Shown one piece after another: positions 18,136 through 23,570 of a DNA stretch of 27,493 nt. Made by a program: the position numbers and the translations under genes. How positions within the stretch are numbered: the first letter of the stretch is position 1; each line of letters begins with the position of its first letter. Under the pieces are notes generated by a model that worked only from the letters and a program-made list of their open reading frames with translations, did no database searches and had not been told where the DNA came from. The DNA comes from a virus (lineage: Duplodnaviria; Heunggongvirae; Uroviricota; Caudoviricetes), in the IMG/VR virus record IMGVR_UViG_2703718834_000005, positions 1-27,493 of that record. One strand, given 5' to 3'.

Positions 18136-20016
18136 TTAATACTCCGTCACGTTTTCCTGTCGCCACGCCTCGTCATATTCCGATTTCGGCATATTGGCGA
18201 TGTAGCTATATGGCGATCCTGATTCAAGTTGCAGGAACTGGTGCGATTGCTCGTCAAGGAACAACGGGACACCACCTTCCCAACCTTCGCCGTTACGTTG
18301 TTTTTCAAGCATCAAAACAGATGCCGGAGATGCCAGTAGCTGTTCGTCCTTCTCTGACATCTTTTCACCACTCTGAACTCTCTGTAACGCTCTCTCGCGA
18401 GCCTTGTTACGCCAGATGATGAAAAGGTTGTCTGTCAGGTCTGTTATCGCTCCAGAGCCTTTTACGTCCATTTTCCCGGTTGGTTTTTCTTCGCTGTCAC
18501 CTTTTCGCGAGTGAGTAACGAGAATGACGTGGGAGTTTGTTTTGTTTTTGAAATCGCAAATCGAGTCAACAAACGCCTTCTGCCCGTTATAGTCATCGTC
18601 GCCTATGCCACATTTCATCAGGCTGTCGATGATGAATAACTGGATGCCGTATCGGCGGCGAGCGTAGTCGAATATTTCGATCAGCCTGTCGGCTTTCGCC
18701 GTTCCGGTCAGGCCAAACACCCAAAGTCTTTCGTCATAAAATTTAAATGCAGAGTCAATTTCCAGCACTGGCGGCATCTTGCAGCACGTCGCCTGACGGG
18801 TAAGTCGCTTAAGGAGAATGCCTGGCTTCAGCTCAAGTGACGCGATGCACGTCTTCACACCCTGACGCATTGCCTCAAGTGCCATATGCCCGACAACCTC
18901 CGTTTTTCCGTGACCGTTCACACCATTGACCAGCGTCAACTCGGCCTCACGGAACTGGAATTTATCTGCCAGAGATTCCCACGGTGGATTAAACAGATAC
19001 TGCTGCTTGCCGTAGAAAGCGTTGATAGTGTCCTGGTAAAACTCTCGCGCGCTGTAGAGTTCTTCAGGATCGAAGTAGGATGCCGTGCCGATGTACTGCC
19101 AGATTTCATCCTCGGTAACACCGTTCATCAGGCATTCGTTGATGTCTTTGTACGGCAGAGTAACAAGACGGCAACGATGTTCACCGAGTCGGCTTGCGAT
19201 TTCCCTTGCGGCTTCACGACCAACATCATCAACGTCCATCGAGATGAATATTTCCTCAAACCTGTCGAGGTTGTGATACTCAAACTCAATCCACTGTTGC
19301 TTAGCGCCTTTCCCGCCACCAAACGGCACGGATAACGCCGAGATGCCGTATTGCGCATAGCTCATACAATCAATTTCGCCTTCGCAAAGTACAACCGCCC
19401 TTACGCCAGCGTCCAGAGCCTGCCATCCGAACAGACAAGGTTCGCAATCACCTTCTGCCATAATGACTTTCTTCCCGTCCGGGCGCTCAGTGCTGATTCG
19501 CTTGACCTGCAACAACTCACCATCGCGTTTGTACGGAAGCACCAGTGCATCAAGTTCTCGTTCTCCATTCCACACCTTGCCGCTGACAACCTCGTAGCGC
19601 TTTACGACTTCTGGCGATATGCCACGCGATTGCAGGTACTCAAGATGGGATTCTGTTCTGGTAACGTAGCGGGCGATTTTCTTGCGGTCAGGTCTGGAGA
19701 ATTTCTTCTCACGTTTGGCATCGAAATGGTGATCGTCATCCTTGATTCCGAGAAAGGCTTTCGCTTCCTGCATAGCCTGATGCAGGTTAATTCCACGACA
19801 TGCCATCCACAAATCAAGCATGTCACCGCCGTCTCCCTCAGCGAAATCAGCCCATTTTTTCTTGCCGCTAAGGTTGACCTTAAGGCTGTTTCCCTTGTCA
19901 CCGTTGACGTTACCGGCAACCCACTCATGCCCCTCTTTCTTGCCGTTTGGCAACAGGTGCGGAGCCACCCTGTCAACCTGCGCCCAAAGCAGGTCGCTAA
20001 GTTCACTTGGCGTCAT
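18136..20016 (-). CDS. bifunctional replicative primase-helicase (TOPRIM domain + DnaB/RecA-fold ATPase)
   Basis: 626 aa; TOPRIM-like VLCEGEIDCMS; Walker A GVNGHGKT and Walker B-like IIDSL in C-terminal half. Confidence 0.75.
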   Translation of the reverse strand: MTPSELSDLLWAQVDRVAPHLLPNGKKEGHEWVAGNVNGDKGNSLKVNLSGKKKWADFAEGDGGDMLDLWMACRGINLHQAMQEAKAFLGIKDDDHHFDAKREKKFSRPDRKKIARYVTRTESHLEYLQSRGISPEVVKRYEVVSGKVWNGERELDALVLPYKRDGELLQVKRISTERPDGKKVIMAEGDCEPCLFGWQALDAGVRAVVLCEGEIDCMSYAQYGISALSVPFGGGKGAKQQWIEFEYHNLDRFEEIFISMDVDDVGREAAREIASRLGEHRCRLVTLPYKDINECLMNGVTEDEIWQYIGTASYFDPEELYSAREFYQDTINAFYGKQQYLFNPPWESLADKFQFREAELTLVNGVNGHGKTEVVGHMALEAMRQGVKTCIASLELKPGILLKRLTRQATCCKMPPVLEIDSAFKFYDERLWVFGLTGTAKADRLIEIFDYARRRYGIQLFIIDSLMKCGIGDDDYNGQKAFVDSICDFKNKTNSHVILVTHSRKGDSEEKPTGKMDVKGSGAITDLTDNLFIIWRNKARERALQRVQSGEKMSEKDEQLLASPASVLMLEKQRNGEGWEGGVPLFLDEQSHQFLQLESGSPYSYIANMPKSEYDEAWRQENVTEY

Positions 20017-20120
20017 GATTCCCTCAGATTGAGATTTTTAAACCAGAAATCGACAAACGAAATACTTAACCAGCCGTGGTTATAACCAGCGACCAGTAGC
20101 GATTTGATTTTTGATTTCAT
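20013..20120 (-). CDS. possible small protein (35 aa) coupled between O-like and helicase genes
   Basis: ATG 3 nt after O-like stop with AGGTGA upstream; stop overlaps helicase ATG (ATGA); MKSKIKSLLVAGYNHGWLSISFVDFWFKNLNLRES. Confidence 0.25.
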   Translation of the reverse strand: MKSKIKSLLVAGYNHGWLSISFVDFWFKNLNLRES

Positions 20121-20123
20121 GGT

Positions 20124-20984
20124 TCACCTGTCGAAAAACACGTAGCCAGTTTTCGATACGGTGATTGCGGATGATGGTTTAGATTGTGGTTGAATAGTTT
20201 CTGGCTTCTCGTCGTTCCAGCGTTGACCGTTCAGGTAGCTCGATGGTAACAACCTGTCGAATCCGAACTGCTTACCATTCCTGCATGCGATGTCTTCTGC
20301 CAGCATCGTGGCAAACTCGCTTGCCGTACCCCTGGTAGTTTTACGCCATTCCCTGAACTGTGTTCTGAATGCCGAAGCTGCGTTTTTCTTCCCGGCTTTC
20401 CGCATGCCTGCACACCAGAATATTTCCTCGAATGCCTTGTCGGTTTCTTCGTGACGGTCAGGTGATTTTTCACACTCCGTCCGAACACTTTCGGACATAG
20501 TGTTTTTATTATTTCTTTTTTCTTTTGTAATAGTTTCTTTTGTGTGTCCCTGTTTTGGTGACAGCGCTGTCACCGTTTTGGTGACACTTTTTGTCACCAA
20601 TGCAGTGACATTATCACCAGAGTAGTGACACCCTTCGATTTGCCATTCCTCGATGTTCTTGTTAGGACCGATTTGCTGGCCTTCGCGAAGGATAACCTTC
20701 ATCGCGATAAGCTCATTCTTGGCCTTGTTTACCTTCTGTCTTGGCAGCCTGGTAATTTGAGCTAACTGACTATCAGAGATGCGATCCATCTTTTTACCGT
20801 AGCCGTATGTTTTACGGCATATGGCGTGGGCAACCTTGCTCTGATTTTTCGTTAAATCTGCGCCGATAAGCTCTTCATACAGGGCATTTGCAAGACGGGT
20901 ATAACCATCTTCAACTTCTGCCACACGACGCTCCACAGGCCGTTGTGAAGGCCTTAAATGTGTTACGGTTGCAAGATTACTCAT
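20124..20984 (-). CDS. replication initiator, lambda O-like N-terminal domain with divergent C-terminal domain
   Basis: 286 aa; N-terminal region (DGY.RL.N.L.E...GADLTK.Q.KV..AI.RKTYG..K.MDRI.DSQL..IT.LP) resembles recalled lambda O; iteron array lies inside the gene. Confidence 0.8.
20479..20633. promoter_or_regulatory. origin of replication: palindromic iterons, AT-rich region and flanking palindrome inside the O-like gene
   Basis: GGTGACAGCGCTGTCACC (20557..20574), GGTGACACTTTTTGTCACC (20580..20598), AGTGACATTATCACC (20604..20618), partial GTGACACCC; AT-rich 20500..20556; palindrome GTCCGAACACTTTCGGAC at 20479..20496. Confidence 0.8.
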
Positions 20985-21155: not shown

Positions 21156-21452
21156 TCAGAATTGCATATCAATTTGCTTAAAATCCTCGGTGGCGGCCGG
21201 GGATTTTTTCTTTGTGATTTCATCAAGCGCATACTTAAAAGCCCTGCTAATCGGACTGATGTCTGATGCCATTCCGAAAGCACACAAGACCGAAGCAATA
21301 AATCTCCAGTCCGTTCTGCTTATCTTCGATTCATGACAGCCAATCATCTTTGCCAGACCGCGCTGGGTAAGCGTTGACAGGTTGATGAGTAAATCAGTTT
21401 CAGCGCGATCAATTTCTCGCTGTGTTGGCTTGCTGTAGCTTGCTTGTGCCAT
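21156..21452 (-). CDS. cII: CII-like lysogeny establishment activator
   Basis: 98 aa; HTH region and C-terminus [18 protein letters not shown] resemble recalled lambda CII (KKRPAATERSEQIQMEF). Confidence 0.8.
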
Positions 21453-21519
21453 TTGTTAATTTTCCTATATTGGTATTGAGTTATAGCGGCACACCCAATG
21501 GATTTGCCGCTGATGTTTG

Positions 21520-21560
21520 CTCACCCGGTTAGAGGTGAAAGGCCAGAACTGTTAAAGAGC
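21520..21560 (-). promoter_or_regulatory. nutR (boxA + phage 21-type boxB)
   Basis: minus-strand GCTCTTTAACAG (boxA), 9-nt spacer, UUCACC-UCUAACCG-GGUGAG hairpin (boxB); between cro and cII-like gene. Confidence 0.7.
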
Positions 21561-21567
21561 AATTTGC

Positions 21568-21753
21568 TTATGCCGCTTGGCGGTAAGCACTTTCTTGATA
21601 CTTCAGGGCGCCAGCTGTAACGATTTCCAATCGATAGGCGTCTTTCTCTGGGATAACTTCTTTCCACTGAGAGACTGCTGCATCGCTAATGCCTAGTGCT
21701 TTAGCAACAGCACGCTGGGTTCCGAAGTGGTCAATAACATCTTTTTTGTACAT
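21568..21753 (-). CDS. cro: Cro repressor (P22 Cro-like)
   Basis: 61 aa; matches recalled P22 Cro; divergent from c2. Confidence 0.9.
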   Translation of the reverse strand: MYKKDVIDHFGTQRAVAKALGISDAAVSQWKEVIPEKDAYRLEIVTAGALKYQESAYRQAA

Positions 21754-21833
21754 AGACTCGCTCCGAAATTAAAGAACACTTAAATTATCCACCAAAGGAA
21801 TCTTAAGTCAAGTTTATTTAAGATGTCTTAACT
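21754..21833. promoter_or_regulatory. OR/PR/PRM divergent control region with 18-bp P22-type operators
   Basis: ATTAAAGAACACTTAAAT (21769..21786) and ATTTAAGATGTCTTAACT (21816..21833), half-site ATTTAAG; minus-strand PR: -35 TTGACT, 16-bp spacer, -10 GATAAT. Confidence 0.65.
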
Positions 21834-22484
21834 ATGAATACACAACTGATGGGTGAGCGTATTCGCGCTCGCAGAAAAGAACTCAAGATTAGGCAGGCTG
21901 CCCTTGGAAAGATGGTTGGCGTGTCTAATGTTGCTATTTCCCAATGGGAGCGATCTGAAACTGAGCCCAATGGCGAAAACCTATTGGCCTTAGCCAAGGC
22001 TTTGCAGTGCTCCCCTGATTACCTGTTGAAAGGAGAGGATAGTCTTTCAAACATTGCCTATCACAGCAGGCATGATCCAAGAGGTTCGTATCCTCTAATT
22101 AGTTGGGTAAGCGCAGGATGTTGGATGGAAGCTGTAGAGCCATATCATAGGCGTGCAATAGATAACTGGTACGACACAACGGTAGATTGTTCTGAAGACT
22201 CTTTTTGGCTCGACGTTAAAGGCGATTCAATGACTGCCCCGGCAGGACTGAGTATTCCTGAGGGGATGATTATTCTCGTCGACCCAGAAGTCGAACCACG
22301 TAATGGAAAGTTGGTAGTCGCCAAACTTGAAGGAGAAAACGAGGCGACATTCAAAAAGTTAGTTATTGATGCCGGTAGAAAATTCCTGAAACCACTCAAT
22401 CCACAATACCCAATGATTGAAATCAATGGGAACTGTAAAATCATTGGCGTTGTCGTTGATGCCAAGCTAGCAAACCTTCCTTAA
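21834..22484 (+). CDS. c2: C2 repressor (P22 c2-like, HTH + LexA-type autocleavage domain)
   Basis: 216 aa; N-terminal HTH (QAALGKMVGVSNVAISQWERSE), C-terminal GDSM serine and KL lysine of S24 peptidase fold; matches recalled P22 C2. Confidence 0.95.
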   Translation: MNTQLMGERIRARRKELKIRQAALGKMVGVSNVAISQWERSETEPNGENLLALAKALQCSPDYLLKGEDSLSNIAYHSRHDPRGSYPLISWVSAGCWMEAVEPYHRRAIDNWYDTTVDCSEDSFWLDVKGDSMTAPAGLSIPEGMIILVDPEVEPRNGKLVVAKLEGENEATFKKLVIDAGRKFLKPLNPQYPMIEINGNCKIIGVVVDAKLANLP

Positions 22485-22508
22485 GGGGCTTTCGCCCCTT
22501 TTTTATTT
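22483..22508 (+). terminator. intrinsic terminator after c2
   Basis: AAGGGGC-tttc-GCCCCTT followed by TTTTATTT; stem includes the c2 stop codon. Confidence 0.7.
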
Positions 22509-22573
22509 CCCGTTAAAAATCAAAGACAAACTAAATTCACGCCCATAAAATTAAGTTTTCTTCAAAAATGCAC

Positions 22574-22606
22574 TTGACCAATAAATTAAGAAGTCTTAAA
22601 TTTAAG
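22574..22606 (+). promoter_or_regulatory. PL promoter with OL operator
   Basis: -35 TTGACC (22574..22579); operator AATTAAGAAGTCTTAAAT (22584..22601) overlapping -10-like TAAATT; 12-bp perfect palindrome CTTAAATTTAAG (22595..22606). Confidence 0.6.
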
Positions 22607-22647
22607 CCATCAGCAGGACGCTGGAAGCCAAACGGAACAGATTGGCA

Positions 22648-22688
22648 GGCTCTTTAACATCGACGGACTCTCAACCTAACCGTTGAGA
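22648..22688 (+). promoter_or_regulatory. nutL (boxA + phage 21-type boxB)
   Basis: GGCTCTTTAACA (boxA, matches the GCTCTTTAACAA consensus), 9-nt spacer, TCTCAAC-CTAACC-GTTGAGA hairpin (boxB). Confidence 0.7.
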
Positions 22689-22798
22689 CCAGAACTTGAG
22701 TGGTTTTGGGGATGGCGCGAATTGCAGCTGCAAGACAGCGATCGAGAAGATAAGCACCTCGACGCGTCATGCGCCAAAGCCACTTAAAGGAGACCATC

Positions 22799-23104
22799 AT
22801 GGTAACCATTGTCTGGAAAGAATCCAAAGGTACGGCAAAAAGCCGCTACAAAGCTCGCAGAGCAGAACTTATTGCCGAGCGACGCAGTAATGAAGCACTG
22901 GCGCGAAAAATTGCGCTAAAGCTCTCTGGTTGCGTCAAAGCAGACAAAGCAGCATCACTAGGAATCCTTTGCTGCAAGAAGAAAGAAGAAGTCGTTCGAA
23001 AAAATAGAAGTATTTATTACAAAGATTCAAACCCATTAGGAAACAAAATACATGCAGTCCAAAAAATAAAATTGTACAGTAAACTACCGTACGGTGCTTA
23101 TTGA
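22799..23104 (+). CDS. N: N antiterminator, chimeric: phage 21-type arginine-rich motif with a different N-like C-terminus
   Basis: 101 aa from ATG at 22799 (AAGGAG SD, 7-nt spacer); ARM GTAKSRYKARRAELIAERR as recalled for phage 21 N; C-terminus KDSNPLGNKIHAVQKIKLYSKLPYGAY differs from the displaced remnant at 23475..23570. Confidence 0.75.
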   Translation: MVTIVWKESKGTAKSRYKARRAELIAERRSNEALARKIALKLSGCVKADKAASLGILCCKKKEEVVRKNRSIYYKDSNPLGNKIHAVQKIKLYSKLPYGAY

Positions 23105-23106
23105 GT

Positions 23107-23445
23107 ATGCTTATGGTGAAAAAGACTATTTATGTTAATCCTGACCGCGGACAAAACAGAAAAGTATCTGATAGAGGTCTTACATCTCGAGACAGGAGGA
23201 GAATAGCGAGATGGGAAAAGAGGATAGCATATGCATTAAAAAACGGTGTAACACCTGGATTTAATGCTATAGATGACGGTCCTGAATATAAGATTAATGA
23301 AGACCCAATGGATAAAGTTGACAAAGCATTAGCAACACCATTTCCTCGCGATGTCGAAAAAATTGAAGATGAAAAATATGAGGATGTAATGCACAGAGTT
23401 GTTAATCACGCTCACCAACGAAATCCAAATAAAAAATGGTCATAG
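23107..23445 (+). CDS. nun: Nun-like transcription termination/exclusion factor
   Basis: ARM DRGLTSRDRRRIARWEKRIAYALKN and C-terminal NPNKKWS with penultimate Trp, as recalled for HK022 Nun; start ambiguous (ATG 23107 or 23113, GTG 23116; track uses TTG 23101). Confidence 0.8.
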   Translation: MLMVKKTIYVNPDRGQNRKVSDRGLTSRDRRRIARWEKRIAYALKNGVTPGFNAIDDGPEYKINEDPMDKVDKALATPFPRDVEKIEDEKYEDVMHRVVNHAHQRNPNKKWS

Positions 23446-23465
23446 CCCACTTCGGTGGGTTTTTT
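23446..23465 (+). terminator. intrinsic terminator directly after nun
   Basis: CCCAC-ttcg-GTGGG followed by TTTTTT; begins 1 nt after the nun stop. Confidence 0.75.
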
Positions 23466-23474
23466 ATTGTCTGA

Positions 23475-23570
23475 ACTAACCGAATTTATTACAGCAAGCC
23501 ACGCAGCGAAATGGGTGTGACTTGTGTTGGTCGCCAGAAAATGAAATTAGGCAGCAAACCACTTATTTGA
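23475..23570 (+). pseudogene. displaced 3' remnant of N (encodes the phage 21-type N C-terminus)
   Basis: frame opens after TGA and reads TNRIYYSKPRSEMGVTCVGRQKMKLGSKPLI*; shares the 10-bp ATTTATTACA (IYY codons) with N at 23012..23021; no independent start context. Confidence 0.65.

Follow-up and report, generated by a model that had tools for sequence, protein, structure and literature searches.

A nun gene predicted to exclude lambda-type phages lies directly behind a phage 21-type nutL site and N gene

Introduction

Two described systems stand closest to the locus considered here. The first is the Nun protein of phage HK022, whose exclusion is uniquely specific for lambda (PMC4124055, PMC4496710). 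Its N-terminal arm tethers Nun to lambda boxB, and roles have been described for residues H98, K106/K107 and W108 (PMC5386594, PMC4496710). HK022 has no N gene, and the genomic slot between pL and nun is occupied there by the put RNA. The second is the N/nut module of phage 21 and lambda imm21, the boxA of which is the E. coli rrn boxA (PMC3177189). We analyzed a stretch of 27,493 nucleotides of a Caudoviricetes virus (IMG/VR record IMGVR_UViG_2703718834_000005, positions 1 to 27,493; hereafter the window), in which a phage 21-type nutL and a complete N gene occupy the slot between pL and an HK022-type nun gene. The plus strand of the window is the leftward direction of the lambda map.

The block is not new: phage mEp235 has the same block in annotated form, GenBank records that name N and Nun date back to 2012 (mEp235, mEpX1), and the block's logic of self versus non-self restates the classic work on HK022 Nun. 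The identity of each part to a characterized counterpart, together with the layout, conservation and distribution of the block, makes it very likely that an imm21 N/nut module is combined here with an HK022-type Nun that would exclude lambda-type phages and spare the transcripts of its own prophage. The interest of the locus comes mainly from a pattern in the wider Nun family that was met in passing, rather than from the window block itself.

Results

Two known modules joined within N

Positions 21450 to 23500 of the window are 99.4% identical to mEp235 over the full length of 2,051 nt, and the features annotated for mEp235 in GenBank include "antitermination protein N," "transcription termination factor Nun" and the two boxA sites. 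Phage vB_EcoP_Kapi1 is 99.1% identical to the entire 2,051-nt region. Phage 21, lambda imm21 and DE3 are 98.7% identical from cII to about codon 74 of N, and their identity ends at about position 23021, inside N. Judged by these matches, the region would serve immunity and early control in a lambdoid prophage of P22/Sf6-like type, and two known modules appear to be joined in it. The first (about 21450 to 23020) reads as the imm21 set of cII, nutR, cro, oR/pR, cI, oL/pL, nutL and the first two thirds of N, and the second (about 23003 to 23470) as another allele of the N C terminus, fused in frame, followed by nun and a terminator. The features on which the argument depends are as follows.

21520..21539, minus strand: nutR boxB, TTCACCTCTAACCGGGTGAG / UUCACCUCUAACCGGGUGAG, with a CUAACC hexaloop; identical to the annotated phage 21 nutR stem-loop
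21550..21561, minus strand: nutR boxA, TGCTCTTTAACA / UGCUCUUUAACA; identical to phage 21 boxA-R
22648..22659, plus strand: nutL boxA, GGCTCTTTAACA / GGCUCUUUAACA; identical to phage 21 boxA-L
22669..22688, plus strand: nutL boxB, UCUCAAC-CUAACC-GUUGAGA (DNA TCTCAAC-CTAACC-GTTGAGA); identical to phage 21 nutL
22799..23104, plus strand: N antiterminator, 101 aa; arm and middle region of phage 21, different C-terminal allele
23003..23112, plus strand: 3' allele of N that travels with nun; phage 21 homology ends near 23021 and HK022 homology begins near 23003
23052-23057 and 23075-23080, plus strand: putative nun promoter hexamers ATGCAG and TACAGT, 17-nt spacing; identical to the hexamers annotated in phage O276
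23113..23445, plus strand: nun, transcription arrest and exclusion factor, 110 aa; PHROG 5632, 2.2e-69; PDB 6ALG, E 2.3e-71
23444..23470, plus strand: intrinsic terminator directly 3' of nun; GC hairpin and T run, -10.3 kcal/mol, z -2.7

Resident nut sites and N arm of phage 21 type

The boxA-spacer-boxB sequences of nutL and nutR are base for base those of phage 21, in which boxA-L, nutL, boxA-R and nutR are annotated, and a boxA with a CUAACC-loop boxB lies downstream of both pL and pR. It is this identity that supports the assignment of the sites, folding having been set aside as functional evidence. In isolation each boxB forms a 7-bp stem with a CUAACC hexaloop (-7.8 kcal/mol for nutL, -7.6 for nutR), and none of 200 shuffles folded as well as either. 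When the sites are given a 60-nt context, RNAfold favors other pairings and the z-scores are non-significant, which counts against folding as evidence. Lambda boxB, by contrast, has a 5-bp stem and a GAAGA or GAAAA pentaloop. The original prediction had already recognized both nut sites and the dissimilarity of their CUAACC loops from the lambda pentaloop, and its coordinates and the phage 21 identity are confirmed. For nutR it had the boxB sequence and site right and drew an 8-nt loop, a minor mis-parse, since a U-G pair closes the CUAACC hexaloop.

The resident N protein has the cognate arm, its residues 8-29 reproducing without a difference the 22-residue peptide of phage 21 N in PDB 1NYB. 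Antitermination of the put type finds no counterpart in the window, where the best match to the HK022 putL core is 47%, equal to background, and a complete N is present. A scan of the window for lambda boxB, allowing up to 3 mismatches, returned a sole 2-mismatch match, which is at chance level (1.26 expected) and was rejected. This look-alike of lambda nutR boxB, GCCCTGAAAAAGGCG at 814-828 on the minus strand, lies in a structural gene, cannot form a stem and has no boxA nearby.

The Nun protein is that of HK022 and would act on lambda-type transcripts

Only residue 12, with R for S, separates the Nun protein of the window from HK022 Nun (PDB 6ALG). Residues 20-45 are identical to HK022 Nun and match the full 26-residue peptide of PDB 1HJI, which was solved with lambda boxB, and by this match the arginine-rich N-terminal arm is predicted to bind lambda boxB. 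The C terminus (...VVNHAHQRNPNKKWS) is identical to chain N of PDB 6ALG; the tail HAHQRNPNKKWS is unchanged and H98, K106/K107 and the penultimate W108 are present. The gene also shares with HK022 its slot just downstream of pL, the hexamers annotated as the nun promoter and a terminator 3' of the gene. With an arm solved in complex with lambda boxB, the arrest tail of HK022 and a resident nut of phage 21 type, exclusion of lambda-type phages that leaves the prophage's own transcripts untouched would be expected.

In a lysogen, where cI would repress pL and pR, nun would be made from a weak constitutive promoter of its own, located within the end of N, and the transcript would stop at 23444-23470. 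Upon superinfection, the Nun arm would bind the lambda-type boxB, with its GAAAA or GAAGA pentaloop, on the early transcripts of the incoming phage, and the C-terminal tail (H98, K106, K107, W108) would wedge into the elongation complex and arrest it. Resident transcripts carry only phage 21-type boxB, which would be bound by the phage 21-type N and so would not be tethered to Nun. After induction, N would bind the CUAACC-loop boxB on the pL and pR transcripts, with Nus factors on the rrn-like boxA, and RNA polymerase modified by N would read from pL through terminators, including the one just after nun. We infer expression of nun in the lysogen, an exclusion phenotype and a failure of Nun to bind the resident boxB. 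The same division of targets, with Nun sparing its own transcripts and blocking lambda-type phages, had been put forward in the original prediction, and it is well supported by the identity of the parts and by the absence of a boxA-linked lambda-type boxB from 77 HK022-type nun loci (see below), the phenotype being a predicted one.

The original prediction also placed N and nun in one operon. The two genes share a strand, and the 8 nt that separate them hold no terminator; the hexamers annotated as the HK022 nun promoter nevertheless lie intact within the 3' part of N. In the O276 record the -35 and -10 of this promoter (ATGCAG, 17 nt, TACAGT) fall in the stretch common to HK022-type and N-nun phages. 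Of 76 HK022-type nun loci, 71 retain these hexamers and another 3 have TATAGT. King, Madsen and Weisberg, writing in J Bacteriol in 2000, reportedly found the nun promoter to be constitutive in the prophage and its transcripts to end just after nun.

Several points weigh against exclusion of lambda-type phages with sparing of self. The nun promoter is weak by consensus and is missed by a generic promoter scan, its assignment being transferred from the O276 annotation. That Nun does not act on the nut sites of phage 21 or P22 was reportedly found by Robert et al. in 1987 (Cell 51:483); in the open literature searched, we found no paper stating that Nun is inactive on phage 21 nut, and none describing Nun homologs or the Nun of mEp235. 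Two loci of the wider Nun family (see Discussion) may be at odds with a rule that Nun and the resident system never match: in locus L102 (2700-3288) the arms of N and Nun are identical at 13 of 16 residues, and in L087 (2030-3333) an HK022-like Nun arm stands beside a boxB with a GAAA tetraloop, CGGCU-GAAA-AGCCG.

These two loci, whose Nun arms seem to suit the resident N or boxB, are also part of the case for Nun acting additionally, or instead, on resident transcription, for example by damping pL and pR in competition with N. Placed in the pL operon, 8 nt after N, Nun would be abundant after induction. At about 300 nM the protein arrests non-specific elongation complexes, and its overproduction is toxic (PMC5386594, PMC4496710). 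We nevertheless regard a self-regulatory role as improbable. The arm of the window protein is identical to that of HK022 Nun and shares only 6 of 16 residues with the resident N arm, which is not significant (shuffle p 0.24), and HK022 nun mutants grow lytically and lysogenize normally (PMC4124055, PMC4496710).

The N-nun block is the common arrangement and HK022 the exception

The original prediction held the pairing of N with Nun to be unusual, and this is contradicted by the distribution of the block. Among complete E. coli genomes, nun is present in 221 of 5426, and 211 of these have the whole 841-nt nutL21-N-nun block. In the phage collection nun is found in 30 records. In mEp235, mEpX1, PDP110P1, PA28 and Stx1_120412, nun comes directly after an N that bears the phage 21 arm and is preceded by the phage 21 nutL boxB; Stx1_120412 is the one Stx1a-converting phage among the contexts covered. 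Among these phage contexts only HK022, HK75 and O276 have putL and no N, and the annotation of O276 mixes lambda and HK022 genes, as in a mosaic. Of 77 HK022-type nun loci, a set in which some loci are the same phage present in two collections, 65 have phage 21 nutL and the phage 21 N arm, 8 have putL, 3 have other contexts and 1 has too little upstream sequence for classification. Two of the three other contexts (L022 and L086) have a different N and boxB. A lambda-type boxB adjoining a boxA was found in none of the 77. The usual home of nun therefore appears, from these sequences, to be directly behind a phage 21-type N and nutL, and N-Nun pairing is not an oddity.

Phages mEp235, Kapi1, mEpX1, PDP110P1, PA28 and the Stx1a-converting phages have the same nutL21-N-nun block as the window, set among different immunity and replication modules; the records of mEp235, mEpX1 and PA28 annotate both N and Nun. 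Phage 21, by contrast, has another C-terminal allele of N followed by ral where the window has nun, although its nutL, nutR, boxA sites and N arm are identical. The junction was examined by aligning the end of N and nun of the window, HK022, O276, HK75, mEpX1, PA28, PDP110P1 and phage 21. HK022-type and N-nun phages have in common nun and about 100 nt 5' of it. In the window this shared stretch is the last ~35 codons of N, whereas in HK022 it is non-coding and follows directly after the putL region; HK022 (L003) 2375-2500 aligns with window 23003-23112 as a non-coding remnant of the N 3' end that includes the annotated nun promoter. Since HK022 has a remnant of the N gene upstream of nun, we take the N-nun arrangement to be the older one and HK022 to be the derived case, descended from an N-nun phage by loss of most of N. 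The original prediction that HK022 dispenses with N holds insofar as there is no N gene, and needs the qualification that the last ~100 nt of N are kept upstream of nun. At 2101-2526 of PA28 (L004) and of a Stx1a phage (L009), N has lost its stop codon through a 1-nt deletion close to its end, and the N frame overruns the start of nun.

The N 3' end and nun move as one mobile block. Among complete E. coli genomes, 218 have the N 3' allele of the window (22995-23112) and 221 have nun, and the simplest reading is that the two are co-inherited because the nun promoter lies within the N 3' end. Such near-perfect co-inheritance is also what would be seen if nun were a silent passenger, carried only through its physical joining to the N 3' end, and RefSeq labels both genes as hypothetical proteins. 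Selection argues otherwise and leaves this explanation very unlikely. Median dN/dS for nun is 0.14 over 28 alleles, which indicates strong purifying selection, and 76 intact 110-codon genes encode 17 distinct proteins. The promoter hexamers are conserved as well, and the nutL-N-nun block is kept joined to at least 6 cI/oL contexts and 23 downstream contexts. Between the window and HK022 nun, dN/dS is 0.03, with 7 synonymous changes and 1 non-synonymous change.

The chimeric N protein

The N protein of the window is the same as that of PDP110P1 and is 1 to 3 residues off those of mEpX1 and mEp235. Its last ~28 residues are unlike phage 21 N and belong to a C-terminal allele (YYKDSNPLGNKIHAVQK...), putatively the RNA polymerase-binding part, which is also found in the phage genomes mEp235, mEpX1 and PDP110P1. 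That this chimera is inactive, so that the prophage is defective or uses another antitermination route, might be suggested by the unlike C terminus and by a Pfam N_peptide score of 18.4 bits, under the cut-off of 27.9 bits, and is nonetheless the least probable alternative of all, given that the same or nearly the same N occurs in phage genomes, that its C-terminal allele aligns with other N C termini and also stands on a lambda-arm N in locus L013, that no putL-like sequence lies upstream, and that the protein matches the N-like PHROG 271 over its full length (3.3e-30).

Discussion

The distribution of the block calls for a correction to the textbook picture, in that nun normally lies behind a phage 21-type N and nutL, with HK022 a derived exception. 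The block is common, in about 4% of complete E. coli genomes (211/5426), and occurs also in Stx1a-converting phages. As a rough upper estimate of its targets, 855 of 5426 E. coli genomes were matched by a 50-nt stretch of lambda-type nutL from locus L018 that spans boxA, boxB and the leader downstream. The N-nun block is missed by current annotation tools: NCBIfam and PADLOC have no model for N or Nun, and Pfam has no Nun family. In E. coli YZ3-11 (L011, 6160-6806), N and Nun are both labeled "hypothetical protein" in RefSeq, as they are in most of the E. coli matches listed.

The wider Nun family is small. A Nun search of 5.8 billion proteins returned only 22 clusters, and a Nun profile search of 1.84 billion representatives returned 31 clusters at 50% identity. 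A genome-per-species scan gave only 6 loci, the IMG/VR scan being more productive, and two further members lie on contigs of only 1 to 1.5 kb, in which the resident nut type can be read partially at best. The C-terminal ~25 residues are nearly invariant across the family, with a conserved arrest tail ..DxM..VNHAHQRxPxKKW, whereas the N-terminal arms are widely divergent. Several members match an N-like PHROG with their N-terminal half and a Nun-like PHROG with their C-terminal half. In most of the divergent loci with a readable upstream gene, the Nun-family gene lies within a few bases of the N stop codon; in L087 one open reading frame (ORF) stands between N and Nun, and put-type loci have no N.

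We tentatively propose, with rather less than even confidence, that Nun belongs to a small family of arrest factors, linked to N, that has diversified in the lambdoid prophages of Enterobacterales. Its members would be chimeras of an N-like arm and an arrest tail, the arms having been copied from different N classes (lambda-like, P22-like, NSKxRRYxxRGEL), and would usually follow an N of another class. The window block would then be one node in a network of mutually excluding antitermination specificity groups. If this is true, it would amount to general warfare between phages through mimicry of antitermination RNA-binding arms, and would provide a source of orthogonal peptide-RNA pairs. The family may be undescribed, no paper using "Nun-like" or "Nun homolog" having been found in a partial literature search.

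The arm of Nun mostly appears to resemble the N of another phage and not the resident N, a pattern that is not absolute. A universal rule that the Nun arm never matches the resident N was rejected, being contradicted by L102 and possibly by L087. The Nun of Hafnia phage Pocitis76 type, with the start MDAQARRREKRKEKQEEWK, is identical to the lambda-type N arm of L018 at 12 of 16 residues, and none of 5,000 shuffles was as good. A Nun-like protein with a near-lambda N arm is seen in Pocitis76 (L010, 2240-2767), in L015 and in L093-L098. In Pocitis76 and L093 this lambda-armed Nun comes directly after an N with a different arm, and the Pocitis76 annotation says only "transcriptional regulator."

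The members of a 97-aa subfamily, Nun2, combine an arm KDNSKNRRYKxRGELIAKRK with a tail KVNHAHQRRPDKKWS. The Nun2 arm is identical at 11 of 16 residues to a third class of N (the N of L102 and the second N in L016), with 0 of 5,000 shuffles as good; the protein P0060 appears to belong to the same N class as the N of L102. In L018 (2527-3294) and L019 (2497-3291), which have canonical nutL and nutR of lambda type, with boxB sequences such as GCCCT-GAAGA-AGGGC and GCCCT-GAAAA-AGGGC, Nun2 lies 7 nt downstream of a lambda-type N. Nun2 is absent from all 50,697 phage records, and the two public protein records for it say "hypothetical protein." The possibility that Nun2 mimics the phage 21 N arm, which would have made the prophage of the window its target, is weakened and was set aside, since just 8 of 16 residues match that arm (p 0.02), fewer than the 11 of 16 shared with the other N class. 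A simple reciprocal pair of lambda and phage 21 exclusion systems is likewise unsupported, the boxB of the L102 class being unlike that of phage 21.

Other members differ in context. In L107 (790-1461), a Nun-family protein with the P22 N-like start MTIITYGKSS..., as in the family protein P0058, is in a put-type context and is followed by a fragment like the P22-type N C termini of other loci. In Citrobacter braakii (L012, 594-1060), a Nun homolog is followed by a 45-aa remnant of an N C terminus. In L013 (2360-3940), putL is followed by two different tandem Nun paralogs, a terminator and, ~500 nt on, a lambda-type N, and neither boxA nor boxB is detectable in the locus.

Flanking genes and the remainder of the window

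The immunity genes and promoters that precede nutL and N are as follows.

21156..21452, minus strand: cII; Pfam Phage_CII, E 2.7e-33
21568..21753, minus strand: cro; Pfam P22_Cro, E 5.7e-28; 98.7% DNA identity to phage 21
21784..21811, minus strand: pR promoter, TTGACT-16-GATAAT; promoter scan, 10/12 matches; in the phage 21 oR region
21834..22484, plus strand: cI repressor of imm21 type, helix-turn-helix and S24 peptidase; Pfam Peptidase_S24 1.2e-30, HTH_3 6.4e-17
22483..22508, plus strand: intrinsic terminator 3' of cI; hairpin and T run, where the phage 21 record annotates a terminator
22574..22602, plus strand: pL promoter, TTGACC-17-TAAATT, within oL; promoter scan, at the position of the phage 21 oL1-oL3 operators and pL start

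The cI gene has 98.7% DNA identity to those of phage 21 and lambda imm21. Downstream of nun, three small ORFs without a Pfam match are followed by cIII, kil, an unassigned ORF, RecT and a gene of the Gp157 family, the composition of an ordinary pL operon. Rfam at gathering thresholds gave no match anywhere in the window. The remainder of the window has a P22/Sf6/HK620-like head, lysis and nin region. The replication module (18136-20984) encodes a 286-aa replication protein and a 626-aa toprim primase-helicase, in contrast to mEp235, which has O and a DnaB-like helicase in place of the primase-helicase, and to phage 21, which has lambda-type O and P. Because its replication module differs from those of both phages, the window carries the imm21-N-nun block in a different mosaic.

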